Part shown: one piece after another, positions 508 through 47,700 of the stretch | Layout: every line of letters starts with the position of its first letter | Position numbering within the stretch: position 1 is the first letter of the stretch | Assembly: GCA_964520655.1 (NCBI GenBank) | Contig: CAZFNI010000006.1 | Coordinates: 78,790-142,789, forward strand | Source of the DNA: an uncultured Planctomycetales bacterium | GTDB lineage: Bacteria > Omnitrophota > Gorgyraeia > Zapsychrales > Fredricksoniimonadaceae | Direction of reading: 5' to 3' | Length of the DNA stretch: 64,000 bases | Position numbers and translations under genes: made by a program | The notes under the pieces: model-generated | The model's database searches: none | Told to the model about the DNA's origin: nothing | Seen by the model: only the letters and a program-made list of their open reading frames with translations

Positions 508-1368
508 ATGCGTTCAAAGATAATGCTGCTGTTGGTTATGTTCGTTGCTGTTCTTGGTTGTTCGGTGTATGCGGCCGGCCCGTCCATACAGATCAAGGGG
601 TCGGACACCATGGTCAATTTGGGCCAGGCTTGGGCGGAAGAATATATGAAGGAACATCCGGATGCTTTTGTCGCGGTGACCGGAGGAGGTTCAGGAACGG
701 GGATCGCGGCCTTGATCAGCGGAACATGCGACATCGCCGAATCGTCGCGCGAGATGAAAAAAGAAGAGATCGATCTGGCTAAAAGCAAAGGCATTGACGC
801 GAAGGAGTATAAGGTCGGCATCGACGGGCTGGCGGTCGCGGTCAGTCCTCATAATCCCGTCAATCAGCTGACGATCGACCAATTATCGGATATTTTCACC
901 GGTAAGATCAAGAACTGGAAAGAAGTCGGCGGTAAAGATGCCCAGATCGTTGTGCTGTCGCGGGAGGTCAATTCCGGGACCCATGTGTATTTCAAAGAAC
1001 ATGTATTGCGCAAAGGCGATGCCAAAAGCACGGTTGAGTTCACGCCGGATGCGCTGTTGATGTCCTCCTCTCAGGCCATCGTGGATGAGATCGCACAGAA
1101 TGATGTGGCCATCGGTTATTACGGGATGGGGTATGTGAACAATACCCAGAAAGCATTGGCTGTATCCAAAGACGCGGCAGGCCCTTTTATCGCTCCTACT
1201 ATTGAGAATGTGATGCAAAATAAGTATTATATCTCCCGTCCCCTGTTGATGTATACTAACGGCCAGCCTCAAGGGGCGGTGAAAGGATTCATGGATTTTG
1301 CTTTAAGTCCGGAAGGTCAAAAAATCGTTAAGGAAACGGATTTCGTCCCTGTCCAAAAACATGAATAG
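508..1368 (+). CDS. pstS: Phosphate ABC transporter substrate-binding protein PstS
   Basis: Signal peptide, then GSDTMVNL...VTGGGSGTG...SSREMK motifs typical of the PstS family. First gene of a pstSCAB-phoU operon. Confidence 0.9.
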   Translation: MRSKIMLLLVMFVAVLGCSVYAAGPSIQIKGSDTMVNLGQAWAEEYMKEHPDAFVAVTGGGSGTGIAALISGTCDIAESSREMKKEEIDLAKSKGIDAKEYKVGIDGLAVAVSPHNPVNQLTIDQLSDIFTGKIKNWKEVGGKDAQIVVLSREVNSGTHVYFKEHVLRKGDAKSTVEFTPDALLMSSSQAIVDEIAQNDVAIGYYGMGYVNNTQKALAVSKDAAGPFIAPTIENVMQNKYYISRPLLMYTNGQPQGAVKGFMDFALSPEGQKIVKETDFVPVQKHE

Positions 1369-2248
1369 AACACAGTGGAATTTTAAGCGCGGCAAAGAAT
1401 TGTGCATCGAACAATGCATCTATTTAAGCGGTGTTGTTTCGATCATTATCGTCGCGTTGATCTTTATCTTTTTGGCTAAGGAAGGATTCGCCTTGTTTAG
1501 CACCGTCGGGTTGGGGGATTTTTTGACGGGCAAGAATTGGTATCCTATCTCAACCCCCAGTCAGTTCGGCATCTTCCCTTTAATTCTGGGGTCCTTGTAT
1601 GTGACGGTCGGTGCCAGCTTGATCGCGGTGCCGATCGGGATCGCCAGCGCTGTTTTTATCTCAGAGGTTGCTACCGGCCGTGTGAAAGAGATCTTAAAAT
1701 CCGGTATTGAGCTTTTGGCGGCGATCCCAAGCGTCGTTTTGGGTTTTATCGGCATGATGACCCTTGTGCCTTGGGTCAAGACGACATTTAAGATACCGAC
1801 GGGACTCACCGCTTTTTCCGGGGCCTTGATGCTGGGCTTCATGGCCATGCCCACCATCGTCAGCATCGCGGAAGACGCGCTCAATGCTGTTCCTAAACGT
1901 TACAAGGAAGCGGCTCTGGCCTTAGGCGCGACGCGCTGGCAGGCCATATGGCGGGTCATTTTACCTGCCGCCTCTTCAGGTATCGTGGCAGCGGTGATGC
2001 TGGGGATAGGTCGCGTCATCGGGGAGACCATGGCCGTCATGATGATCACCGGTAATGCCGCGCGCATCCCAAAAACCATTCTGGAGCCCGTCAGGACGCT
2101 GACCGCGACCATCGCGGCGGAAATGGGCGAGACGGTCCGTGGCAGCGATCATTATCATGCGTTGTTCGCTATCGGGATCGTATTATTCGTCATTACTTTT
2201 ATCATCAATCTGATCGCGGATTTCGCGGTCAACTATAAACGCAAATGA
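1361..2248 (+). CDS. pstC: Phosphate ABC transporter permease PstC
   Basis: Polytopic membrane protein with an ABC permease EAA-like loop. ATGA start/stop overlap with pstS. Operon context. Confidence 0.9.
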   Translation: MNRTQWNFKRGKELCIEQCIYLSGVVSIIIVALIFIFLAKEGFALFSTVGLGDFLTGKNWYPISTPSQFGIFPLILGSLYVTVGASLIAVPIGIASAVFISEVATGRVKEILKSGIELLAAIPSVVLGFIGMMTLVPWVKTTFKIPTGLTAFSGALMLGFMAMPTIVSIAEDALNAVPKRYKEAALALGATRWQAIWRVILPAASSGIVAAVMLGIGRVIGETMAVMMITGNAARIPKTILEPVRTLTATIAAEMGETVRGSDHYHALFAIGIVLFVITFIINLIADFAVNYKRK

Positions 2249-3096
2249 TCAAGAATCCGCACATCCGGGAGAAAATCGCTTTTACTTTTCTGTTTATAGC
2301 AACAGCGATCGTTGTTCTGCCGGTTATTTTTATTTTCGGGTATATCATTGCCAAGGGCTACAGTGCCATCTCGTGGGAATTTTTTACCCAGATGCCGACG
2401 CGCGGCATGCGCGAAGGCGGCATATTCCCGGCGATCATCGGTACGCTTTATCTGGTTTTGGGCACATTGGTTTTTGCCCTGCCGCTGGGTGTTCTGACCG
2501 CGATCTATTTGACCGAGTATGCGAAAGATAACTGGTTTACCAGGGCTGTCAAATTAGCCATCATCAATCTGGCCGGTGTTCCCTCGGTCGTCTTTGGATT
2601 GTTCGGGCTTGGTGTTTTTGTCATGTTCCTTAAATTCGGGGCGTCGATCCTGGCGGGATCATTGACACTGGCCATTATGGTGCTGCCGATCATTATCACG
2701 ACCACGCGCGAAGCCTTAGACAGCGTGCCGCAATCGTTTCGGCAGGTGAGCATGGCGCTTGGAGTGTCGCGCTGGGATACCATCCGTCATGTGGTGTTGC
2801 CCAATGCGATGCCTGGGATATTAACGGGGATGATCCTGGCGATATCGCGCGCTGCCGGCGAGACCGCACCCATTTTATTTACGGTCGCGGCGTTCTATTT
2901 GCCCAAACTGCCCAAGTCGGTCATGGACCAGGTCATGGCATTGCCATATCATTTGTATGTCATCTCAACCCAGGTGCCCAATATCAAGCCGCAAGTGCGT
3001 TATGGCACGGCCCTGGTATTGCTGATGATCGTGTTGTCGGTGAATTTAGCGGCGATCATTTTGCGTTCATATTTCAGGAAAAAGAAAAAATGGTAA
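2245..3096 (+). CDS. pstA: Phosphate ABC transporter permease PstA
   Basis: Polytopic permease. ATGA overlap with pstC. Conserved pstA position in the operon. Confidence 0.9.
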   Translation: MIKNPHIREKIAFTFLFIATAIVVLPVIFIFGYIIAKGYSAISWEFFTQMPTRGMREGGIFPAIIGTLYLVLGTLVFALPLGVLTAIYLTEYAKDNWFTRAVKLAIINLAGVPSVVFGLFGLGVFVMFLKFGASILAGSLTLAIMVLPIIITTTREALDSVPQSFRQVSMALGVSRWDTIRHVVLPNAMPGILTGMILAISRAAGETAPILFTVAAFYLPKLPKSVMDQVMALPYHLYVISTQVPNIKPQVRYGTALVLLMIVLSVNLAAIILRSYFRKKKKW

Positions 3097-3848
3097 AACC
3101 GGTCAAGATCGAGGTCCGTGATCTAAGTGTCACCTACGGCGCTGTTAAGGCGCTTTCCCGTCTGAATTTAACGGTCTATGAAAATGAGATATTAAGCATC
3201 ATCGGCCCGTCCAACAGCGGCAAGTCGACATTTTTACGGTGTTTAAACCGGTTCAATGATAATTTCGCACAATTTAAACGGCAGGGCACGATCACCATTA
3301 ACGGCAATGATATATACGGTAATATCGATGTGCAGACATTGCGTAAGAAAGTCGGCATGGTCTTTGCCTTGCCCATGGTCTTACCGATGACGGTCATGGA
3401 CAATGTGGCCTACGGCTTGCGGCGACACGGCATTAAGGATAAAACGGTGATCCAGGAAGCTGTTGAGCGCAGTTTAAAAGCCGCGTATCTCTGGGATGAG
3501 GTCAAGGACCGTCTTAATGCATTGGCAATGAATTTATCCGGTGGTCAGCAGCAGCGTTTGTGTTTGGCCAGGACGCTGGCGGTAGAGCCGGACATCATTC
3601 TTTATGATGAGCCCTGTTCGGCGCTTGATCCCATATCGACGGCGAAGATCGAGGAAGCGATGGTGCGTTTTAAGCAGAAATACACCCAGGTCCTTGTGAC
3701 CAATAATACCAAACAGGCGGCGCGCGTCGGAGATCGCACGGCATTCTTTTTGATGGGCGAGATGGTCGAGCTGGATAAGACCGATAAGCTGTTCACCAAG
3801 CCGGCGGATGAGCGTACGGAAAGTTATATCTCCGGGAGGTTCGGTTAA
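3090..3848 (+). CDS. pstB: Phosphate ABC transporter ATP-binding protein PstB (copy 1). Canonical Walker A and LSGGQQQR signature, but the Q-loop Gln and the H-loop His are substituted.
   Basis: Walker A GPSNSGKST, signature LSGGQQQRLCLAR, Walker B IILYDEP. The Q-loop reads VFALP instead of VFQ. The H-loop reads VTNNTKQAARV instead of VTHNMQQAARV. Confidence 0.88.
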   Translation: MVKPVKIEVRDLSVTYGAVKALSRLNLTVYENEILSIIGPSNSGKSTFLRCLNRFNDNFAQFKRQGTITINGNDIYGNIDVQTLRKKVGMVFALPMVLPMTVMDNVAYGLRRHGIKDKTVIQEAVERSLKAAYLWDEVKDRLNALAMNLSGGQQQRLCLARTLAVEPDIILYDEPCSALDPISTAKIEEAMVRFKQKYTQVLVTNNTKQAARVGDRTAFFLMGEMVELDKTDKLFTKPADERTESYISGRFG

Positions 3849-4603
3849 TGAAAGCGATCGTGACCACCCGTCAGCTGAATTTATATTACGGCACATTTAA
3901 AGCGCTGATCAATATTGATATGGCCATCGAAGAACATAAGATCACGGCGTTGATCGGGCCTTCCGGATGCGGCAAAACAACACTGCTGAGGGCTTTTAAC
4001 CGGATGAATGATCTGATCGAGGGGGTCAAGGTTGACGGTCAGGTATTGATCGAAGGTCAGGATATTTACGCGCCTCAGACAGACATGGTGAGCTTGCGCA
4101 AAAAAGTCGGGATGGTCTTTCAGCGGCCTAATCCTTTTGCTTTGTCCGTTTGGGATAATATCCTTTTTGGGGTCAAGATCCATCAGGCCGCGCCCCGTAA
4201 GGAATATGGCCGCATCGTCGAGGAATCTCTGCGGGCGGTGGATCTCTGGGATGTACTTAAAGATAAATTGAACGCTTCCGCGCTGAATATGTCGCTGGAA
4301 GTGCAGCAGCGTTTGTGCATCGCGCGCCTGCTTCCGGTCAAGCCGGATATTCTGCTGATGGATGAACCCTGTTCGGCGCTCGATCCGATATCGACCAGCC
4401 ATATTGAAGAGCTGATCTTTGAATTGAAGAAGAATTATACGATCATCATCGTCACGCACAATATGCAGCAAGCCGCGCGTGTATCGGATTACACGGCGTA
4501 TTTGTATCTGGGGGAGTTGATCGAATTTGGCCCCACCCAGCGTATATTCACTGTCCCGCAGGATAAGCGCACCGAAGCTTATCTGACCGGGCGTTTTGGT
4601 TAA
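3848..4603 (+). CDS. pstB: Second PstB-like ATP-binding protein (copy 2). Canonical Walker A, Q-loop and H-loop, but a degenerate ABC signature motif.
   Basis: Walker A GPSGCGKTT, Q-loop VFQRPNPF, Walker B ILLMDEP, H-loop VTHNMQQAARVSD. The signature reads LSLEVQQRLCIAR instead of LSGGQQQR. TAATG overlap with copy 1. Confidence 0.88.
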   Translation: MKAIVTTRQLNLYYGTFKALINIDMAIEEHKITALIGPSGCGKTTLLRAFNRMNDLIEGVKVDGQVLIEGQDIYAPQTDMVSLRKKVGMVFQRPNPFALSVWDNILFGVKIHQAAPRKEYGRIVEESLRAVDLWDVLKDKLNASALNMSLEVQQRLCIARLLPVKPDILLMDEPCSALDPISTSHIEELIFELKKNYTIIIVTHNMQQAARVSDYTAYLYLGELIEFGPTQRIFTVPQDKRTEAYLTGRFG

Positions 4604-4617
4604 TTGAAAGGAATCGT

Positions 4618-5289
4618 ATGTTACGAGATAAATTAGTCGAATTAAAACGACACTTGCTGGAGGATGCGGCCTTGGTCGAGGAAATGATCGCCAAAAGTAT
4701 CCGCGGCCTTTCGGAAAAAAATGAGGTCATGCTCCTTGAAGTTGTCAACACCGAGGAGCCCAAGGCTAATGACTATGACCGGGAGATCGATGAGATGTGC
4801 GTTGAACTGATCGCCCAGTTCGAGCCAGTGGCCCGCGACCTGCGCATGGTCATCATGATCGTCAAGATGAACAAGGACTTGGAGCGCATCGCAGACCACG
4901 CGGTCAATGTCTGTGAGAGCGCCTTGTTCTTGATCGATAAGCCAACGCTGCCGCCATTAAATGACTTAAAGCTCATGGGCGATAATGCTGTGCATATGCT
5001 TAAAGACAGCATCAATGCCTTTGTGAATGAGAACGTGCAGCTGGCCAGCGCTGTCTTAGAGCGTGATAATATCGTGGATAGCGCAGGGGATAAGATCTTA
5101 AAAGACCTGACCGAACTGATGCGTAACCAAAAAGACGTGATCCCGCGCGCCCTGCAGGTCATGCGCATCGCGCATAACCTGGAACGCATCGCGGACTTGG
5201 CGACGAATATCGCTGAAGAAGTTATTTATATCGTCGAAGGGCGGGACATCAAACACCATCATGTGGAAGATGAGCCTGCAAATCCATAA
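4618..5289 (+). CDS. phoU: Phosphate signalling complex protein PhoU
   Basis: Two-repeat PhoU architecture (E..D...NKDLERIADHA and NLERIADLATNIAE). Position after pstB. Confidence 0.9.
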   Translation: MLRDKLVELKRHLLEDAALVEEMIAKSIRGLSEKNEVMLLEVVNTEEPKANDYDREIDEMCVELIAQFEPVARDLRMVIMIVKMNKDLERIADHAVNVCESALFLIDKPTLPPLNDLKLMGDNAVHMLKDSINAFVNENVQLASAVLERDNIVDSAGDKILKDLTELMRNQKDVIPRALQVMRIAHNLERIADLATNIAEEVIYIVEGRDIKHHHVEDEPANP

Positions 5290-5330: not shown

Positions 5331-6668
5331 ATGCATCCTTTAGAATGCCGTCGATTATTGCCGCAGGACCTCAAACCGCTGAACAGTTTGGCTGATTATA
5401 AGGCCATTGGCGGCGGGCAGGGCTATAAGCGCGCATTGTCCATGTCACCTGTTGATGTCATTGCCGAGATCAAGAAGGCTAATTTGCGCGGCCGAGGCGG
5501 TGCGGGTTTTCCAACGGCGATTAAATGGGGCGGCGTGCGTAATGAACCATGCCCGATTAAATATGTGGCCTGCAATTTCTCTGAAGGAGAACCCGGCACC
5601 TTTAAGGACCGCTACAATATTTTGATCAATCCCTATCATTTGTTTGAAGGGATCGCGATCGCGCTTTATGCCATTGGCGCCAAAGAAGCTTATATAGGTA
5701 TCAAAAAGAAATACACGCCCCAGGTCAAGCGCCTTTTTGCCGCGCGCAAAGAGATGGAAGAAGCCGGCATGATCCCTAAGGGGCTGATCAAGATCCATTT
5801 GGGGCCGGATGAATACCTTTTTGGAGAAGAAAAAGGTTTGATCGAATCGATCGATGGCCGCTATCCTATGCCGCGTAACATTCCTCCCTTTATCCAGGGG
5901 ATCAATTTCGAACCGAATTCACCCAATCCCACCTGCGTCAACAATGTGGAGACATTTTGCCAGGCGGCCTATATATTGAGGAAGGGCGCGGATAACTTTA
6001 GATCAGTCGGATCAGAGGATACTCCGGGTACTGTGATGTGTACAGTGTGTGGAGATGTGCAAAGGCCTGGTGTATATGAGGTTGCAGCTGGAAAAGTGAC
6101 ATTAAAACAGCTTATTTATGACATTGCCGGGGGCCCGGCAGGCAAATTCCCTATCAAAGCCGTGTTTTCAGGGGTTGCCAGCGGTGTTGTAACGCCGGAG
6201 CGTTTCGATACGCCGTTGGATTTCGGTTCTTTAAAGAAAGTGGGCGGCGGTTTAGGGTCTGGCGGCTTCATTGTCTATGATCAAAGCGCCTGCATGGTGC
6301 AGGTGGCGCTTAAATTCAGCAATTTTCTGGCCAAAAGTTCCTGCGGACAATGTGTCCCCTGCAACCGCGGTACCGCCCATATCACGGAATATCTCAAAAA
6401 GATCGAGTTTGGCCAGGGCAAGGTAGATGATCTGGAGGCGATCTTTGAGATCTGCGGCCGCTGCACTAATCAGACCCGTTGCTTTTTGCCAACTCAGGAA
6501 AGTATCCTTATCCCCAGCATTATCAAGACTTTTAGCGCCGAATTCAAGGCCCATATCGACGGCAAACGCGATCCTGATGAACGCGATCTGATACTGCCCA
6601 AGCTACATGCCTATCATGCCGAAACATCCCTGTTTAGTTACGACGACCCCGCGAAGTTCGCCATCTGA
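5331..6668 (+). CDS. NuoF-like NADH-binding flavoprotein (complex I 51 kDa subunit family). Stand-alone, with no partner subunits nearby.
   Basis: RGRGGAGFPTAIKW FMN/NADH-binding motif. SLBB-like middle region. C-terminal CGQCVPCNRG...C 4Fe-4S cysteine cluster as in NuoF/HoxF/FdsB. Confidence 0.7.
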   Translation: MHPLECRRLLPQDLKPLNSLADYKAIGGGQGYKRALSMSPVDVIAEIKKANLRGRGGAGFPTAIKWGGVRNEPCPIKYVACNFSEGEPGTFKDRYNILINPYHLFEGIAIALYAIGAKEAYIGIKKKYTPQVKRLFAARKEMEEAGMIPKGLIKIHLGPDEYLFGEEKGLIESIDGRYPMPRNIPPFIQGINFEPNSPNPTCVNNVETFCQAAYILRKGADNFRSVGSEDTPGTVMCTVCGDVQRPGVYEVAAGKVTLKQLIYDIAGGPAGKFPIKAVFSGVASGVVTPERFDTPLDFGSLKKVGGGLGSGGFIVYDQSACMVQVALKFSNFLAKSSCGQCVPCNRGTAHITEYLKKIEFGQGKVDDLEAIFEICGRCTNQTRCFLPTQESILIPSIIKTFSAEFKAHIDGKRDPDERDLILPKLHAYHAETSLFSYDDPAKFAI

Positions 6669-9091: not shown

Positions 9092-10279
9092 ATGAAAATC
9101 ATCTCAATTGCGAATCAAAAAGGCGGGTGCGGCAAAACGACCACGGCCATCAATCTGGCCTCGGCCCTGGCATTTAACGGACAGAAGGTCCTTCTCATTG
9201 ACCTTGATCCTCAAGCGCACGCGACACTTGGATTGAACATCGACGACGCTAACAGTTTGTACAATGTCATTTCGAAATTAACGCCTAGAAAATTGCGCAT
9301 CAAGGATATTATTACCCGTGCTGACAGGACGTTCGATGTGGTGCCGTCCAATGTTCTCGTTGGCACACTTGAACAAGAGTTGGCGGAAGAGATCGGTCGC
9401 GAGCTTAAACTGGTCGACGTGATCAATGAGATCAAGGGGTTGTATGATTATGTGCTCATCGATTGCCCGCCGTCGTTAGGGTTCCTGACGGTCAATGCGA
9501 TCCGTGCCAGTAACGAGGTCATTATCCCTGTTGAGACCAGTCGTTTCTCCATGCAGGGTGTTGACCACCTGCACGACATCATTTTCCTGATCCGCGACCG
9601 TTTGAACCACCCGGTCACAAGCAGGGTGCTCATCACCATGTTCGATTCGCGTTTACGTCATTCCTTCACCATGCTGGCCAAGATGAAGGATAAGTTCGGT
9701 AAGCTGTTGTATGATACCATTGTTCATGTGAACGTGAAACTAAAGGAAGCAGCGGTCATGGGGGAAGCGGTGCTCAAGTATGATAAATATTGCCGCGGAT
9801 CCAAAGATTATCTGGGCCTCGCGCGTGAGATATTGACCGACGATAAGGTTCTATCCATGCCTGCTCGTGAGAAAACCGTCAAGGCCAAACCTGTTGCTGT
9901 TGAGGCGCGGTCTCAGGAAGAGATCGTTCAGGCTGTGGCTTCCGCCATGGAGGATGCAGCGGATTATCAGCCTTCCGAGCGCATGCAGGAAATTGTTTCC
10001 AAAGAAGCGGCGTCGTTCGCTGGTTCGGCTTTCTTTAAGCTTAATGCTCCCCAGGCGCAGTCGGTGTATGTGACGGGATCTTTCAATGACTGGTCGTTGG
10101 ATGAATCTTGCCGCATGAAGAATATCGGCGGTCTCTGGACGTTGCAACTGCCTTTGAAGCCTGGCATGTATAAGTATCAATTCATTGTCGACGGTAAATG
10201 GCAGGAAGATCCTGAGAACAAAATGATCGAACGCAACTCTTTCGGTGACGTCAATTCCCTTATTGAGGTCCAGGGTTAA
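9092..10279 (+). CDS. ParA/MinD-family P-loop ATPase fused to a C-terminal CBM48 / AMPK-beta glycogen-binding domain
   Basis: Deviant Walker A ANQKGGCGKTTTAINLA, plus DLDPQ and LIDCPPSLG motifs of ParA/Soj. After a linker, the C-terminal ~80 aa read YVTGSFNDWSLDE...WTLQLPLKPGMYKYQFIVDGKWQEDPEN, the classic AMPK1_CBM/CBM48 signature. Confidence 0.75.
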   Translation: MKIISIANQKGGCGKTTTAINLASALAFNGQKVLLIDLDPQAHATLGLNIDDANSLYNVISKLTPRKLRIKDIITRADRTFDVVPSNVLVGTLEQELAEEIGRELKLVDVINEIKGLYDYVLIDCPPSLGFLTVNAIRASNEVIIPVETSRFSMQGVDHLHDIIFLIRDRLNHPVTSRVLITMFDSRLRHSFTMLAKMKDKFGKLLYDTIVHVNVKLKEAAVMGEAVLKYDKYCRGSKDYLGLAREILTDDKVLSMPAREKTVKAKPVAVEARSQEEIVQAVASAMEDAADYQPSERMQEIVSKEAASFAGSAFFKLNAPQAQSVYVTGSFNDWSLDESCRMKNIGGLWTLQLPLKPGMYKYQFIVDGKWQEDPENKMIERNSFGDVNSLIEVQG

Positions 10280-11673: not shown

Positions 11674-12098
11674 TGCGCTTTGTTGCGGTCATTTTTGGGG
11701 TATTTTGGGCCTTAGGATCAATGGTTTTTGCCCGGGAGATTGAAGTTGTTATTGGTGGGAAGTCGTATTATTCCATGAAAGATTACCGGGCGGCCCAAAG
11801 AGGCCTTGTTGCGGCGAAGACTCCCCAGTCCGAGAAGATCGATCCTGTCACAGAACAGGCCGTCAATGAATTGAAGTCCGTCAGTTTGGAGCAGGGCATA
11901 AGCCGTGTGCGGACGGATTTTGACCAGAATTGGGATAATCCAACCCCGAAATTCCATGTGGAAGAGGAGAATTTAGAGAAGCAGCTGGAAGCGGTCGCAG
12001 ATAACCGCAAAGAACCGGTCTTGGTCGTTTCCGAGAACGGAAAGCTGCGTGTCATGCTCCTGGAAGAGAATAAAACAAGCACTACGCCTGAAAAATAG
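11673..12098 (+). CDS. Hypothetical secreted protein (signal peptide)
   Basis: MRFVAVIFGVFWALGSMVFA signal peptide. Translationally coupled to the upstream ORF. The alternative start at 11652 overlaps the upstream gene. Confidence 0.45.
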   Translation: MRFVAVIFGVFWALGSMVFAREIEVVIGGKSYYSMKDYRAAQRGLVAAKTPQSEKIDPVTEQAVNELKSVSLEQGISRVRTDFDQNWDNPTPKFHVEEENLEKQLEAVADNRKEPVLVVSENGKLRVMLLEENKTSTTPEK

Positions 12099-12104
12099 TT
12101 TCCC

Positions 12105-12133
12105 TTGACGCTTGACCCCCGGGCGGGTATAAT
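12105..12133 (+). promoter_or_regulatory. Sigma70-like promoter for rpsO-pnp (TTGACG-17-TATAAT)
   Basis: TTGACG at 12105-12110, a 17 nt spacer, and TATAAT at 12128-12133, about 60 nt upstream of the rpsO start. Confidence 0.6.
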
Positions 12134-12195
12134 CCTTGAACTTTTAAGTCATTAACTACAAAGGCGGCAGGGCCGTCTAACAAGGAGGAAGTACG

Positions 12196-12465
12196 TTGGC
12201 TATTGTAAAGACTAAGAAAACAGAAGTCATTAACCGTTTCAAGACCCACGCGAAAGATACTGGCTCCGCGCCTGTTCAGATCGCCGTGTTGACCGAACAG
12301 ATCAACGCGCTCAATTTGCATTTTAAGTCCCATCAGAAGGACTTCCATTCCCGTCGTGGATTGCTCGTATTGATCGGCAAACGCCGCCGTCTTTTGGATT
12401 ATCTCCAATCGATAGATCCCAAAAAATACGAAGAAACCATCAACAAGCTTGATTTACGCAAGTAA
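12196..12465 (+). CDS. rpsO: 30S ribosomal protein S15
   Basis: 89 aa. [48 protein letters not shown] is a typical S15 sequence. Confidence 0.95.
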
Positions 12466-12495
12466 AAAGCTTTTATAAAATTTTAAGGATCTATT

Positions 12496-14601
12496 ATGTC
12501 TACGGCTCGCGTTGAGGCCACGTTCAGTGGTCACCCCATCATTATTGAATCAGGAAAATTAGCAAAACAGGCCAATGGAGCGGTTGTTGTATCCGCTGGT
12601 GGTACTGTTGTTTTGGTAACGGCGTGTATGTCCAAGAAGGCCAAAGAAGGCCAGGAATTCTTCCCGTTGACCATCGAATATCAGGAAAGAACTTATGCCG
12701 CTGGACGAATCCCTGGAGGTTTCTTCAAGCGTGAAGGCCGGCCCTCTGAGCGGGAAGTTCTGGTGTCCCGCCTGATCGATCGTCCTGTTCGTCCGTTATT
12801 CCCGGAAGGTTTCCTCAATGAAGTTCAGGTTGTGGCCACGGTGTTAAGCCATGACGGCGAAAATGACCCGGATATTCTGGCCATGATCGGCTCATCCGCG
12901 GCATTGATGGTCTCGGATATTCCATTTGACGGTCCTATCGGCGCTGTGCGTGTCGGTTTGATCGATGGTGAATTAGTCGCTAACCCCACATTTGCCCAAA
13001 GAGTTAACAGCACGATGGATCTGGTCGTGGCTGGCTGGGGCGACGGCATTGTCATGATCGAGGGGGAGGGAGATCAAGTCCCGGAAGCGAAAGTCCTGGA
13101 AGGGTTGAAATTCGCGCTGGGGGCTTTGAAAGCTTCTCAAGAGATCCAGAAAAAATTACAGCAACAGGTCGGTAAGGCCAAAGCGGTTGTCCCGGTCAAA
13201 GAACCTAATGAAGCGTTCATCAAGAAAGTACGTTCATTAGGCACTGACCGTTTAAATAAGATCTATAGCGGCATCGCCGACAAGGCTGAGCGCGAGAACG
13301 CGGTCAATGCCTTGTTCGCCGATCTGACCAAGGATTTGACGATCTACGCGGATTGCGCAAAGGCCGGCGAAGAATTCACGGCTGGCGCGGTCAATGCTGT
13401 TTTTGAGGTCATGCAGTACGAGATCATCCGCCAGAACGTGTTCCAAAAGCAGCTGCGTGCCGACGGGCGTGGTTTAAAAGAGGTCCGTGCCATCGAATGC
13501 GAGGCTGGTGTTCTCCCGCGTACCCATGGTTCGTCATTGTTCACCCGCGGTCAGACCCAGAGTTTGGGTGTTGTGACCTTAGGGACCAAGGATGATGAGC
13601 AGTTAGTCGAGACCTTGGAAGGTACTTCCTATAAGACATACATGTTGCACTATAATTTCCCTTCGTTCTCTGTTGGTGAGACAAAGCCAATGCGTTCTCC
13701 AGGTCGCCGCGAAGTCGGCCATGGGGCTTTGGCGTCGAAGGCTATCCGCTATGTTATCCCTTCTAAAGAGGATTTCCCTTATACGATCCGCGTGGTCTCT
13801 GAGATCTTGGAATCCAATGGTTCCTCGTCCATGGCTTCTGTCTGTGCCGGCTGTTTGGCGCTCATGGATGCGGGTGTTCCGCTCAAAGCGACGGTCGCTG
13901 GTATTTCCGTCGGGTTGATCTCGGATGCGACCCAAACGGTCTTGATCACTGATATCATGGGGCTGGAAGATCATTTCGGCGACATGGATTTCAAGGTGGC
14001 TGGAAGCCGTACAGGCGTCACCGCGATACAGCTGGATCTGAAGATCAAATCACTGTCCATGAGCTTGATCGAACGCACCGTCGCCCAGGCGAGGGAAGCT
14101 CGTTTGATGATCATCGACACAATGGAAAAGGCCTTACCTGCGCCGCGCAAGGAAATGTCTCCTTATGCGCCACGCATCGTCACCATCCAGATCCCGCAAG
14201 ATAAGATCGGGGAAGTGATCGGGCCGGGCGGCAAAACGATCCGTAAGATGATCGAGGAGACCGGTGTTACCTCCATCGACATCGAAGAGGACGGTAAAGT
14301 CATCATCGCGTCCCCTAATGGCGAAGCGTTGGATAAAGCCTACGGCATGATCAAGGGCATGACCCATGAACCCGAGATCGGCGGGATCTTTGATGCGACC
14401 GTCAAGCGGATCATGAATTTTGGCGTGTTCGTAGAATTCCTTCCTGGCCGCGAAGGTCTGGTGCATGTCTCGGAATTAGCCAATAAATTCGTCAAGGATG
14501 TCAATGAGGTCGTTAAATTAGGCGATAAATTCAAAGTCAAGCTTGTCGAAAAAGACGAGCAGGGCCGCTTTAATTTAAGCAAGAAACAAGCAGAGTCCTA
14601 G
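12496..14601 (+). CDS. pnp: Polyribonucleotide nucleotidyltransferase (PNPase)
   Basis: 701 aa. Two RNase PH domains, a KH domain and a C-terminal S1 domain (GIFDATVKRIMNFGVFVEF). Conserved rpsO-pnp arrangement. Confidence 0.95.
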   Translation: MSTARVEATFSGHPIIIESGKLAKQANGAVVVSAGGTVVLVTACMSKKAKEGQEFFPLTIEYQERTYAAGRIPGGFFKREGRPSEREVLVSRLIDRPVRPLFPEGFLNEVQVVATVLSHDGENDPDILAMIGSSAALMVSDIPFDGPIGAVRVGLIDGELVANPTFAQRVNSTMDLVVAGWGDGIVMIEGEGDQVPEAKVLEGLKFALGALKASQEIQKKLQQQVGKAKAVVPVKEPNEAFIKKVRSLGTDRLNKIYSGIADKAERENAVNALFADLTKDLTIYADCAKAGEEFTAGAVNAVFEVMQYEIIRQNVFQKQLRADGRGLKEVRAIECEAGVLPRTHGSSLFTRGQTQSLGVVTLGTKDDEQLVETLEGTSYKTYMLHYNFPSFSVGETKPMRSPGRREVGHGALASKAIRYVIPSKEDFPYTIRVVSEILESNGSSSMASVCAGCLALMDAGVPLKATVAGISVGLISDATQTVLITDIMGLEDHFGDMDFKVAGSRTGVTAIQLDLKIKSLSMSLIERTVAQAREARLMIIDTMEKALPAPRKEMSPYAPRIVTIQIPQDKIGEVIGPGGKTIRKMIEETGVTSIDIEEDGKVIIASPNGEALDKAYGMIKGMTHEPEIGGIFDATVKRIMNFGVFVEFLPGREGLVHVSELANKFVKDVNEVVKLGDKFKVKLVEKDEQGRFNLSKKQAES

Positions 14602-37556: not shown

Positions 37557-40179
<2,623 letters not shown>

Positions 40180-43786: not shown

Positions 43787-44699
43787 ATTAAAGGATACCG
43801 CGGCGGCTATAGGTATTTTTGACGGGGTGCACCGGGGGCATCGTTATTTGCTCGGAAAAATGCTGGCTAAGGCCAGAACCCACCGTTATACGTCCGCGGT
43901 CATCACATTTTTCCCGCACCCTGCCCATGTCCTGCGTCCCGACCTGCAGCTGAAATATTTAACCACTATGGCTCAGCGTATGTGTTTGCTTGAGGAGCTT
44001 GGGGTGGACATTTGTCTGGTTGTTCGTTTTACAAAGACTTTTGCGCATGTGAAACCGGAGTCTTTCATTAAGAATGTCCTGGTCCGTCAGCTGGGCGTCA
44101 AAGAGTTATTTGTCGGCGATGATTTTCGTTTCGGCCGGGAACGCGCCGGTGATGTGGGGTTATTTCGATCGCTGTCTAAAGAATGTGGTTACAGTATGCA
44201 TGGGGTCAAGGCATTAAAAAATGGGGGGAAGCCAGTGAGCAGTACCCGCATTCGGCGGATGGTCGTGCAAGGTGATCTCTTAAGTGCAAAAAAATTATTG
44301 GGCCGGGACTTTAGCTGCGAAGGTAAGGTTGTTAAAGGCGACGGCCGCGGCAAGACCCTTGGTTTTCCGACAGCCAATATTGATTATCAGAACGGGATCA
44401 TGCCTCCCAACGGGGTTTATGCGGTTGTTGTTGCACATAAACGTAAATTCTACAAAGGCGTGGCCAATTTGGGGTTTCGTCCTTCTTTTGAAACAGCATC
44501 TCCAAAACCGCTTTTGGAAGTGCATTGCTTTGACCTGCATCAAGATATCTACGGGGATTTGATCGAAGTTTCTTTTATCAGGAAGATCCGAGACGAGCGC
44601 TCTTTCCCCTCAGTAGAAATGCTCACCCAACAGATCAACAGGGATGCCGTCAAGGCGCGTGGCATTCTACGATCCCATAGGGTATACTTGTCCCGGTAG
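43755..44699 (+). CDS. ribF: Bifunctional riboflavin kinase / FMN adenylyltransferase
   Basis: N-terminal FAD synthetase motifs (GIFDGVHRGH). C-terminal riboflavin kinase (GRGKTLGFPTANI...E). Confidence 0.9.
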   Translation: MKVILLTSKVKLKDTAAAIGIFDGVHRGHRYLLGKMLAKARTHRYTSAVITFFPHPAHVLRPDLQLKYLTTMAQRMCLLEELGVDICLVVRFTKTFAHVKPESFIKNVLVRQLGVKELFVGDDFRFGRERAGDVGLFRSLSKECGYSMHGVKALKNGGKPVSSTRIRRMVVQGDLLSAKKLLGRDFSCEGKVVKGDGRGKTLGFPTANIDYQNGIMPPNGVYAVVVAHKRKFYKGVANLGFRPSFETASPKPLLEVHCFDLHQDIYGDLIEVSFIRKIRDERSFPSVEMLTQQINRDAVKARGILRSHRVYLSR

Positions 44700-44724
44700 T
44701 ATATATACTACCTTTCGGGAAAAT

Positions 44725-47700
44725 ATGATGTTATTGCGGCCCATTATCCATTTTAGCGTTATTCTTTCTTTGCTCGTCACATCCGTGATGCCTTTGTCCA
44801 GGGCATCGGCGGCGCCTTTGTCTGATCTTCCTAAAGCCGGCACAATGGTTGCTTTAAGTCAAGCCTATCAACCTGCGATCATCCGGGGCATCACCGTCCA
44901 TCCAGATGATCCGTTTATCTTCGATTTTATTGTGGATGCCGGGCAGGACAAGCTGCAGGGCGAGGCATTGAATATGGAAGGGGATAAGCTGGTCAAATAT
45001 TTCCTGGCGGCCCTTGCGGTGCCAGAGAAGGAATTGTGGGTCAACTTAAGTCCTTATGAACAAGAACGCGTTATTCCTGAAGGGTTGGGGCAAACCGATA
45101 TGGGACGCGATCTTTTGGCGCAGGATTATATTTTAAAGCAATTGACCGCATCATTGATCTATCCGGAAAAGGAACTGGGCAAGAATTTCTGGGACAAGGT
45201 TTACAGTCAGATGCAAGCTAAATACGGCAAGAGCGTCAATGTTCCGGTAAATACTTTTAATAAAGTCTGGATCATGGCGGATCAGGCTGAGGTGTTTGAG
45301 CGTGCTCAGACGGCCATGGTGACCAAGAGTCACTTGAAGGTCATGCTGGAGGAGGATTATTTAGCGATGAATAGAAATGCGGCGGGTGGCGCTGAAGTTG
45401 GTGCTTTTGCCCGCAGCGACAGGGGGTCAATGGCTTTATTCCCAGCTACCCCACGGGGGGATGGGTGGCGCGAGGACAAAAGCACCAATTCAGCGACAGG
45501 ACCCGCTCTTGCTAGCCAGGTCATAAAGGAAATCATCCTTCCTGAACTCGAACGTGAAGTGAACACGGGAAAGAATTTCGCGCCGCTGCGTCAGATATTT
45601 CATTCCATCATCCTGGCTGGTTGGTACAAGAATAATTTGAAGGAGGCGTTGCTCAATCAGGTCTATTCAGATCAGAACAAAGTGCGCGGTATTGATCTTG
45701 ATGATAAAACAGTCAAACAGCAAATTTATGAACAATATTTGAAGGCGTATAAAAAAGGCGTGTTCAATTTTATCAAGGATGACATGGTCGAGGGACGCAT
45801 GGTTCCCCGGAAATATTTCTCCGGCGGGGTCGATGCCGCGATGGCCCTTCATCCCAAAAGAACAACGGACAGTGCCATGCTCATCACCGGCCTTGCTGGT
45901 GCTTTGCTTCAGGCGATCACGGTTAGATTAAAAAGGAATGATGTGAAGAAAGAGAAAAAGACCGCCCCTAGCGAACAATTCCGAGTGATCATCAGCAAGT
46001 TGATCAACAATATACAGGGTCCGGATAAGTGGGTCATGCGTCCTTTGTATAACCGTTGGGAAGTAGGGGTGACAGTTGAGGGCTGGCCAAGAACCGTTGA
46101 TGGAAAGAGTACGGCCAGTGCCGAGGACTCCAGGATGCTGTTGGATATTTCTCGGGAGTTTCAACAGGTTTTTCCTGATGCTGTATTTGCTGTGGGGGCA
46201 CAGAATTGGAATCTGCGGATCGTTTATATCGTTAAGACAGAGGCAGAAGCTTTTAGGGTGAAAAACATGCTTAACAGTTCTTCAGTCACTTCAGATATGG
46301 TCCAGTTGCTGGAGAGCTATCTGAAAGAAGGAAAAGCGGCTCCTAGGTCTGGCGAGGCCGCAAAGGAACGTAAGTCCGACGCCGCGATGCAAAGCCTCCC
46401 CAAGGAATATGTGCTTAGGGTGAAGCGTTTGGAGAAATATGAAGCACATACGACCTCTCAGGCGATGATTGATCAATTAATGCGGGATAAGGAACGTCTG
46501 GAATCTACAGAGAAATATATGACAGGACAAATGGAAAGAGGATTTGCTTACGATTTTCAAAAGAAGGAAGCCCAAGCCCGTCTAGAGAGGGTGCAGAAGG
46601 ATTTGATCATTATAAAAAAAGCGTTAGAGGTGTGGGAAGAAATACGACTTGCCCAGATCCCTCATTTAAGCCGCAGGGATATAGTGAATGCTTTTGTTAG
46701 GGATTTTGGTTTGGATTATGGCGTTGGAGGAGAAGAGGAGGCTTATGACTATTCGTTAAAAAGGGATGAATCGATCCTGCCTTTTCTAAAGTTCCTAAAG
46801 AGTAAACAAGGTGCGAATATTCCTTTGGTGGTCATCAATCAACCCGACGGCCAAATTGTGGACCCGGGCATTCAAGAAATGATGGGTTTTGGGATCGATG
46901 CGAAAGAAGCATTAAGGATCTTAGCTGTTTATCTTGATCCGCGCGCTGCCTCTGTTGTGGAGGCCGTATTGAACATGACCATTGAATTGTCAGGGGCATT
47001 AAGCGAAAAGGGTATCCATGCTGCGGATGAGATAGCAATTTATATCATCAATCAAATGGGGTTAGACGGCGGAGACGCTATTACAGATAGTGCCATGCTG
47101 GGAGAGCTTATCCGTGATTATTATCCTTTGCCGAGAAGCACACTTCATCCTCTAAAGATGATGGATCAGCTAAAAGCACGATTAAACAGCCGGACAGACC
47201 GCGAGTGGGTCGCGGTTTCTGACAGCGAAGACGTGCTGCGCCGCGTGCGTTGGGACGTGCATTTTTCTTTAGATGGTCAGGATCATACATTGAATGGTTT
47301 TCTGGCAACGCTTGGACTGCCAAGTGAATTCCATCAAAATCTTGAGCGCGACGGAGGTGCGTCGGTGATCATCTATGATGTAAATACACGCGCCTTGACC
47401 GGTCGCGTTCACCGCGCTTTGACCGCGTTGGCCAGGGAATTAAGAGCTGACCAAAAATTCAACCACCGTTATAGCATTAAGTTGACGCCCAATAAGGATC
47501 AACAGTACTTCCCGGGAACGCTGCATACAGCTAGAATCGCTTTTTCCGTCAGGGAGAATGAACCCAGGGCTGAAAAGTATTATGATTCAACGAACTGGAT
47601 GGTGCGGCTGCGGGCATTGTCGACAAATGAATTACAGGGGTTGCTGGCTCAGGAAGAGCGTATTGTTCGAGAAGTCAAGAATGGGGTCAGTGATTCCGCG

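Follow-up and report, generated by a model that had tools for sequence, protein, structure and literature searches.

The high-affinity phosphate importer PstSCAB is taken to use a homodimer of the ATPase PstB with two equivalent ATP sites, and in Escherichia coli two identical PstB subunits are indeed present, one sitting on PstA and one on PstC (PMC12976172). Tandem pstB genes occur in Firmicutes, where PstB1 and PstB2 of Enterococcus faecalis are fully canonical (PMC12096839) and where the stoichiometry of the Bacillus subtilis complex has been modelled as PstBA-PstBB-PstC-PstA-PstS (PMC11466899). Degenerate ATP sites are described as frequent in ATP-binding cassette (ABC) exporters (PMC3971661), and their role is still debated. 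In an importer, a degenerate site has precedent in the CUT2-type systems RbsA and NupO, whose nucleotide-binding domains (NBDs) are fused and have one degenerate ATP site out of two (PMC11466899). Here we analyze two adjacent pstB genes in a stretch of 64,000 nucleotides (the window) from an Omnitrophota genome (assembly GCA_964520655.1, contig CAZFNI010000006.1, positions 78,790-142,789, forward strand). We propose that together their products form an ATPase that is obligately heterodimeric, serves a PstSCA-type phosphate importer and has one consensus and one degenerate ATP site, and put the probability of this reading at roughly three in four. A preliminary description of this DNA had pointed to tandem PstB proteins with complementary degeneracy at window positions 3090-4603, in a transporter normally served by a PstB homodimer. 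The latter statement agrees with the literature on E. coli and on the Firmicute tandems cited above, and the two open reading frames (ORFs) were recovered exactly, at 3090-3848 (copy 1) and 3848-4603 (copy 2).

The two copies are 48% identical to each other and their alignment contains one single-residue gap, located outside all motifs. Residues 5-251 of copy 2 align without any gap to residues 11-257 of E. coli PstB from the PstSCAB structure 9k3x (E = 2.9e-87), with E. coli LSGGQQQR lying opposite MSLEVQQR of copy 2. Since this alignment is gapless, the motif register is fixed and the motif positions are not alignment artefacts. The full set of ABC NBD motifs, i.e., Walker A GxxGxGK[ST], a Q-loop glutamine, LSGGQ, Walker B hhhhDE and an H-loop histidine, is complete in neither copy (Table 1). 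In agreement with the preliminary description, the alignment gives copy 1 a canonical LSGGQQQR signature, no Q-loop glutamine (VFALP) and no H-loop histidine (VTNNTKQ). The A-loop aromatic residue of copy 1 is kept. The canonical Walker A, Q-loop, Walker B and H-loop reported for copy 2 were likewise found, but its signature, given as LSLEVQQR, starts with methionine. The glutamate in this signature replaces the second glycine of LSGGQ and thus occupies the position of the G551D mutation in CFTR, where an aspartate abolishes the ATP-dependent function of the affected site (PMC2606936).

Composite sites were mapped by the established head-to-tail geometry of NBD dimers (PMC7756269) and not from a structure of this pair. 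On this geometry, all motif deviations of both copies fall into one and the same composite ATP site. The earlier assignment of one fully consensus and one degenerate site therefore stands, but the number of altered elements in the latter rises from three to four, because the Walker A motif of copy 1 is also changed (GxxG to GxxN). As in dimers of the consensus/degenerate type, two non-identical NBDs are present, and the Walker-side defects of one meet the signature defect of the other in a single site. Only the mixed dimer would possess a complete site, because a homodimer of copy 2 would carry a G551D-like signature twice and a homodimer of copy 1 would lack the Q-loop glutamine and the H-loop histidine twice.

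Protein searches provided 240 listed relatives of copy 1, namely the 120 closest and 120 from other lineages, the latter obtained in a second search with a profile of divergent members as the query. All 120 closest listed relatives (65-77% identical) have alanine in the Q-loop, asparagine in the H-loop and an xSGGQQQR signature, and N, S or T occupies the fourth position of their Walker A motif. The H-loop strings in this set, which was not selected on the H-loop, were VTNNTKQ (112), VTNNVKQ (9) and VTHNMQQ (1, which is copy 2, included in the set). The 120 listed proteins from other lineages all share the Q-loop alanine, SGGQ and the Walker B Asp-Glu; R, G, S or N is found at the fourth Walker A position, and the H-loop reads VTNNTKQ in 118 and VTNNTKP or VTNNTKH in the other two. 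The 120 best listed relatives of copy 2, some of them labelled Bacteroidetes or Ignavibacteria, present the mirror image: each has a non-SGG signature together with canonical Walker A, Q-loop, Walker B and H-loop motifs. When motifs were counted in 122 rows comprising the copy 2 matches and both window copies, LSLEQQQR appeared 97 times, and the sole row with LSGGQQQR was copy 1.

For counts at individual sites, motifs were read by alignment to copy 2 in 77 copy-1-type, 81 copy-2-type and 67 canonical PstB proteins. The Walker A lysine, the Walker B aspartate with the catalytic glutamate and the D-loop aspartate are invariant in all three groups (77/77, 81/81 and 67/67, respectively). The A-loop residue is Phe, Tyr or Trp in 74 of the 77 copy-1-type proteins, Tyr in 81/81 of the copy-2-type and Tyr (64) or Phe (3) in canonical PstB. 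At the Q-loop glutamine position, copy-1-type proteins have Ala (76) or Ser (1), whereas Gln is present in 81/81 and 67/67 of the others. The H-loop histidine is replaced by Asn in 77/77 copy-1-type proteins and is retained in 81/81 copy-2-type and 67/67 canonical proteins. The second signature glycine shows the converse picture: it is kept in 77/77 copy-1-type and 67/67 canonical proteins, whereas the copy-2-type has Glu (73) or Asp (8) and never Gly. The signature of the copy-1-type is intact at every position, with Ser, both Gly and Gln each present in 77/77; in the copy-2-type, the first signature glycine position is variable (L 40, G 19, P 10, A 6, E 2, D 2; n = 81) and the serine position is S, T, P or A. 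The fourth Walker A position is also free to vary in the copy-1-type family (N, G, R, S, A, H or K). In a column-by-column screen against canonical PstB, the near-fixed replacements of the copy-1-type all lay in Walker A, the Q-loop region, the D-loop or the H-loop, and those of the copy-2-type were the second signature glycine, with the first relaxed, and the conservative exchanges V137L and A217G. Except for these last two, all near-fixed replacements thus reside in motifs that contribute to one and the same composite site; some further columns are simply relaxed. Because the paired motif substitutions are fixed across the whole family, they are not due to chance. Note that motif calls made by regular expression also produced false Q-loops such as IFTNP or IFTAP in proteins that keep the histidine; one of these, P0241, turned out to be canonical (VFQKS) on proper alignment.

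We then asked how the two types are arranged on DNA. Metagenome contigs were scanned for a DNA pattern encoding VTNNTKQAAR, which gave 120 listed loci (L081-L200). A scan of genome contigs with a copy-1-type alignment made use of the generic PstB patterns LW[DE]EVKDR and GGQQQRLC; its 80 listed loci comprised 75 ordinary canonical PstB loci, reused as background and outgroup, and five with the degenerate pair (L001-L004 and L076, from Planctomycetales, WOR-1, Desantisbacteria, a planctomycete and one more bacterium), which were added to the metagenome set. For 99 of 117 copy-1-type genes, the gene that follows directly downstream on the same strand is a PstB partner; for one (L178) the partner comes after a gap of 600 bp, and for the remaining 17 the contig ends before the partner position. 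A partner is hence found downstream in 100/100 loci whose contig extends far enough. Of the 93 partner signatures that can be read, not one is canonical and none is LSGG (LSLEQ 26, LSGEQ 18, LPLDQ 10, LSPEQ 7, LTLEQ 7, others), and each of the 81 full-length partners has Glu or Asp at the second signature glycine. Canonical Walker A and the Q-loop glutamine are present in all of these 93 partners, as are the Walker B Asp-Glu and the H-loop histidine wherever the contig reaches that far. The 75 background loci look different: 74 contain a single canonical PstB and one (L015, the Firmicute Ammoniphilus) a canonical tandem. In the reverse direction, a copy-1-type gene was found directly upstream of 5/5 copy-2-type genes on long contigs (Ignavibacteria and Bacteroidetes metagenome-assembled genomes, or MAGs, and others), with the gene order pstS-pstC-pstA-B1-B2-phoU. 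The paired substitutions in related genomes, for which the preliminary description had proposed to look, are thus seen in both directions.

Further features of these loci deserve mention. In the metagenome pairs, the residue at position 4 of the copy 1 Walker A tracks the partner signature (N with SLE, G or R with SGE, G with PLD, S with SPE or SAE), and the two positions would face each other across the degenerate site. The association is strong but follows lineage and is inseparable from shared ancestry. A salt bridge between the H-loop lysine of copy 1 (VTNNTKQ) and the signature glutamate of copy 2 was also considered and is not proposed as a general feature, because the lysine is not universal: Ignavibacteria combine VTNNVAQ with LSLEQ. 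A paired and a homodimeric system can be present side by side, and not all Omnitrophota have the pair, as a metagenome contig (L141) carries the degenerate pair (2133-3664) and, 8 kb downstream, a third, canonical PstB-like gene (11755-13092), and an Omnitrophota MAG (L051) has a single canonical PstB at 3967-4759. A separate kind of PstB degeneracy is found on contig JGI Ga0130016_10001764 (L207, 4001-4786), where a single-copy PstB in a phoB-phoR-pstC-pstA-pstB-phoU cluster has the Q-loop VFDRP, the signature LTADERQR, a normal H-loop histidine and no tandem partner; a homodimer of this protein would contain two identical deviant sites.

In a neighbour-joining tree of 225 sequences, the copy-1-type (77/77) and the copy-2-type (81/81) each form a clade apart from the 67 canonical PstB proteins, and Firmicute tandem sequences fall with the latter. 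Both clades were recovered when motif columns were masked and each group was subsampled to 28 sequences, with bootstrap values of 74% for the copy-1-type and 68% for the copy-2-type. Copy 1 genes and their partners have correlated pairwise distances (r = 0.805 over 63 loci), as expected for co-inheritance as a unit. Mean identity within each type (59% for copy-1-type, 63% for copy-2-type) is near that within canonical PstB (65%), which argues for purifying selection and against decay of either copy. Among the taxon labels of the carriers, all of which are MAGs, are Omnitrophota, Planctomycetes, Verrucomicrobiae, Acidobacteriota, Ignavibacteria, Bacteroidetes, WOR-1 and Desantisbacteria, and the paired design is present in more than 100 related loci from about eight bacterial phyla. 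A tblastn search of PLSDB plasmids with copy 1 and its H-loop peptide revealed no cultured or plasmid-borne carrier; all matches were canonical PstBs, with identities no higher than 57% across the full protein and 69% across the H-loop peptide. The simplest history would be one old duplication, followed by complementary specialization and then by inheritance of the pair as a unit across many phyla.

In the mechanism that we favor, the obligate heterodimer would sit on PstC-PstA. Walker A, Q-loop, Walker B and H-loop of copy 2 together with LSGGQ of copy 1 would form the consensus hydrolytic site, while the Walker side of copy 1 (Gln to Ala, His to Asn, a variable Walker A glycine) and the signature of copy 2 (second Gly to Glu or Asp) would make up the degenerate one, which would act as a stable hinge or an allosteric site. 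Each cycle would consume a single ATP, hydrolyzed at the consensus site, in the manner of heterodimeric ABC exporters (PMC3971661; PMC7756269). Copy 1 keeps every nucleotide-holding residue, i.e., the A-loop aromatic, the Walker A lysine with the adjacent Ser/Thr and the Walker B aspartate and glutamate, and lacks residues that sense the gamma-phosphate and assist catalysis. Since the former are all in place, the degenerate site most likely still binds ATP but hydrolyzes it slowly or not at all.

Several points weigh against the heterodimer with one hydrolytic site. First, support for the physical heterodimer is indirect and comes from the logic of complementarity, combined with co-occurrence, overlapping genes and the mirror-tree correlation (r = 0.80). 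Second, loss of the Walker B glutamate is named as a hallmark of degenerate sites in exporters (PMC7544095), yet this glutamate is kept in 77/77 copy-1-type proteins. Third, mutants of MRP1 in which the H-loop histidine of the consensus site is replaced by Asn or Gln transport like the wild type (PMC7756269), and because His to Asn is tolerated there, an H-loop asparagine alone is no proof of inactivity. Fourth, conservation of the H-loop within the metagenome set is circular, as these loci were picked on the DNA pattern of the copy 1 H-loop; this way of picking loci did not enter into the protein searches or the reverse test. In addition, the bootstrap support obtained with masked motifs is only moderate, and the L207 protein, which has no tandem partner, demonstrates that a deviant signature can occur without a rescuing partner in cis.

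The alternative that survives best, though we consider it unlikely, is a heterodimer in which the altered site is free of nucleotide in the closed dimer, because the gamma-phosphate would be repelled by the Glu or Asp of the signature; protein contacts would then hold the site, or it would serve as a sensor for ADP, phosphate or a PhoU-dependent signal. G551D in CFTR makes ATP at the affected site inhibitory (PMC4178940), which would fit. So would the exchange of the fourth Walker A glycine for a bulky or a charged residue (N, R, K, H, S or A) in about two thirds of copy-1-type proteins, the new charges on both sides of the site (a lysine three residues after the H-loop position in copy 1, the signature glutamate in copy 2) and the location of phoU directly next in the operon. 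However, the Walker A lysine and Ser/Thr, the Walker B aspartate and the A-loop aromatic are strictly conserved, which is hard to explain without nucleotide binding, and the pairing of lysine and glutamate is not universal, as the Ignavibacteria illustrate. Furthermore, yeast Pdr5 has the same Gly to Glu exchange in its signature and still holds ATP in its degenerate site, which also counts against an empty site.

Slightly less probable still is a heterodimer whose altered site continues to hydrolyze ATP, more slowly or in a regulated manner, with the catalytic glutamate intact and asparagine standing in for histidine, so that two ATP would be consumed per cycle with differing kinetics. Conservation of the Walker B Asp-Glu, the Walker A lysine and the A-loop aromatic in the copy-1-type speaks for this possibility, as do the transport-competent MRP1 H-loop mutants mentioned above. 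On the other hand, three or four elements of one site are changed together and fixed across phyla, loss of the Q-loop glutamine takes away a contact to the gamma-phosphate and Mg (PMC7756269), and the acidic residue at the second signature glycine corresponds to the CFTR exchange that abolishes the ATP-dependent function of its site (PMC2606936).

It is very improbable that each paralogue works on its own, either as a homodimer or in a complex different from that of the other, and that their roles do not overlap. The adjacent pstB genes of E. faecalis do have non-overlapping cellular functions, but the proteins concerned are fully canonical (PMC12096839), whereas here either homodimer would be without any consensus site. 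Separate roles are also opposed by the strict co-occurrence of the genes in an unchanging order (100/100 and 5/5), by the overlap of stop and start codons, which argues for 1:1 co-production, and by the mirror-tree correlation. Finally, copy 1 as a decaying, functionless duplicate with merely coincidental complementarity is effectively ruled out by the conservation data: although it scores just below the curated PstB cut-off (340.1 vs 343.2 bits), more than 300 proteins and loci have an intact ORF, identity within the type (59%) approaches that of canonical PstB (65%), the replacing residues Ala, Asn, Thr and Lys are themselves invariant alongside a 100% canonical signature, and the matching defect is always carried by the partner.

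The two genes are part of a compact phosphate-uptake operon on the plus strand (508-5289) with the order pstS-pstC-pstA-pstB(1)-pstB(2)-phoU (Table 1). The four neighbors of the pstB pair all pass their curated NCBIfam cut-offs, placing the pair in the operon context expected of PstB, and the same order recurs in loci L201-L206. The operon genes are translationally coupled: the pstA stop and the copy 1 start overlap by 7 nt, and the copy 1 stop and the copy 2 start have a single base in common (TAATG), GGGAGG being located 9 nt upstream of the copy 2 start. Both copies match PF00005 in the precomputed annotation, and TIGR00972 is the best family for each. While copy 2 lies above the equivalog cut-off of this model, copy 1 falls about 3 bits below it, far ahead of its next-best family at 249 bits, which makes it a diverged paralogue of PstB and not an equivalog. 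No curated NCBIfam model is specific to the copy-1-type or the copy-2-type. Apart from the two PstB copies, the whole 64-kb window contains no further ABC ATPase. The closest homologues carry names that assign the organism to Candidatus Omnitrophota.

Table 1 Genes of the phosphate-uptake operon and ATPase motifs of the two PstB copies (window coordinates; scores are bits against the curated NCBIfam cut-off)
Feature	Position	Strand	Family, score and cut-off	Remarks
pstS	508..1368	+	TIGR02136, 270 (206.6)	periplasmic phosphate-binding protein
pstC	1361..2248	+	TIGR02138, 304.5 (196.45)	permease subunit
pstA	2245..3096	+	TIGR00974, 312.7 (193.45)	permease subunit
PstB copy 1	3090..3848	+	TIGR00972, 340.1 (343.2)	252 aa, degenerate-Walker-side NBD
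PstB copy 2	3848..4603	+	TIGR00972, 367.0 (343.2)	251 aa, consensus-Walker-side NBD
phoU	4618..5289	+	TIGR02135, 183.5 (130.25)	phosphate signalling complex protein, last gene of the operon
Copy 1 Walker A	3204..3230	+		GPSNSGKST; fourth position Gly to Asn, Lys45 and Ser46 kept
Copy 1 Q-loop	3360..3374	+		VFALP; Gln to Ala
Copy 1 signature	3534..3557	+		LSGGQQQR; canonical, would complete the consensus site with the copy 2 Walker side
Copy 1 Walker B	3594..3614	+		IILYDEP; Asp and catalytic Glu kept
Copy 1 H-loop	3696..3716	+		VTNNTKQ; His to Asn, Met to Thr, Gln to Lys
Copy 2 Walker A	3956..3982	+		GPSGCGKTT; canonical
Copy 2 Q-loop	4115..4129	+		VFQRP; canonical
Copy 2 signature	4289..4312	+		MSLEVQQR (LSGGQ to MSLEV); second Gly is Glu, would face copy 1 Walker A in the degenerate site
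Copy 2 Walker B	4349..4369	+		ILLMDEP; canonical
Copy 2 H-loop	4451..4471	+		VTHNMQQ; canonical

Inspection of the permease subunits yielded a further observation. The EAA/coupling loop of PstC in paired systems contains an invariant D172 and W193 (100% of 60), both variable in PstC of canonical systems, and PstA shows no comparable difference. These residues may indicate which permease docks the specialized NBD, a relationship that is confounded by phylogeny; as the canonical comparison set is phylogenetically broader, we regard them only as a lead.

Other parts of the window were also surveyed. Just before pstS (70-354), the listed ORF comprises the last 94 residues of an outer-membrane porin of the Porin_5 family (C-terminal part, PF16930, E = 2e-14), which may be a phosphate-related porin of the same regulon. 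Directly after phoU (5331-6668) resides a gene for a stand-alone NuoF-like protein with a Complex1_51K FMN-binding domain and NADH_4Fe-4S, without adjacent nuo genes. An unusual domain combination is encoded at 9092-10279, where a ParA/MinD-type P-loop ATPase (AAA_31, CbiA) carries a C-terminal glycogen-binding module (AMPK1_CBM / CBM_48), and an ORF of 1839 aa at 44644-50163 has no Pfam match at E <= 1e-5. The only tRNA gene in the window is tRNA-Pro CGG (37557-37633). Over positions 1-64000, the plus strand holds most ORFs of at least 180 aa that are not nested in a longer plus-strand ORF, and the GC skew is positive in each 2-kb window of the 64 kb; both are consistent with the leading strand of one replichore.

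At the level of comparative genomics, the data support the interpretation of the paired PstB as a real, conserved and widely distributed variant of the Pst importer, and from the motif pattern we infer its catalytic asymmetry, including the identity of the hydrolyzing site and the one-ATP cycle. It appears to us about evenly balanced whether the pair represents an ancient, widespread and so far undescribed class of Pst importers, with an obligate heterodimeric ATPase that uses one ATP per cycle and whose second site is permanently non-hydrolytic and serves to hold nucleotide or to regulate. If this is true, a natural type I importer with a single catalytic site would exist in at least eight phyla, mostly in uncultured, energy-limited lineages, and would offer a direct natural test of one versus two ATP per substrate. 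Such a phylogenetically broad importer with a single consensus site would make ATP:substrate stoichiometry and importer asymmetry testable without engineered mutants, and it would also allow testing of the coupling of a degenerate site to PhoU/PhoR phosphate signalling. Speculatively, the carriers (Omnitrophota, Planctomycetes, Acidobacteriota, Ignavibacteria and others, all MAGs) hint at energy-saving phosphate scavenging. There is also a consequence for annotation: both genes are labelled "phosphate ABC transporter ATP-binding protein" in databases. With copy 1 below the PstB cut-off, it receives a generic name and the two genes look redundant, and as both carry the same label, pipelines and metabolic reconstructions treat them as redundant copies and not as obligate halves.

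Exporters and some importers with fused NBDs already provide examples of the principle of one degenerate site; new, as far as we found, are the family, the residue pattern and the breadth. In the open-access literature, whose coverage does not extend to the motifs of the cyanobacterial pstB/pstB' tandem, we found no description of a degenerate PstB pair in a phosphate importer. With E. coli PstSCAB (PDB 9k3x/9k3y/9k3s) the system studied here shares the operon parts pstS, pstC, pstA, pstB plus phoU as well as the type I importer architecture, and the motifs of copy 2 are the same in type as those of E. coli PstB except for the signature. It differs in that two diverged subunits and one consensus site take the place of two identical PstBs and two consensus sites. 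The Firmicute tandems (E. faecalis; B. subtilis PstBA/PstBB) likewise have two adjacent pstB genes between pstA and phoU, but complementary degeneracy is absent there, the only one sampled (L015) being canonical in both copies, whereas motifs deviate in both copies of the window, which sets the pair apart from the PstB1/PstB2 type. RbsA and NupO belong to another ABC family with other substrates (sugar or nucleoside), and their NBDs are fused and lack the Walker A lysine, in NupO also the Walker B Asp/Glu; here, the NBDs are PstB proteins encoded by two genes and the nucleotide-binding residues are kept.

A parallel in the asymmetry is offered by heterodimeric ABC exporters (TM287/288, TmrAB, BmrCD, PatAB, TAP1/2, MRP1 and CFTR), in which Walker-side defects and the defect of the opposite signature share one site and one consensus site is left (PMC3971661; PMC7756269). 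These exporters have type IV/V folds with NBDs fused to the transmembrane domains, whereas the PstB pair consists of free NBD subunits of a type I importer, and where exporters lose the Walker B glutamate, the PstB pair keeps it and is changed at the Q-loop glutamine, the H-loop histidine and the Walker A glycine. In its residue pattern the pair also resembles yeast Pdr5 (PMC7756269), whose signature LNVEQ has the same exchange of the second Gly for Glu (cf. LSLEQ and MSLEV) and whose opposite NBD has an altered H-loop. Pdr5, however, is a full-size eukaryotic PDR exporter, and its degenerate site is without the Walker A lysine and the Walker B glutamate that are both present here. The paired PstBs would thus have arrived convergently at the solution of the exporters, down to the signature exchange of Pdr5 at the position of CFTR G551D, with the catalytic glutamate kept.

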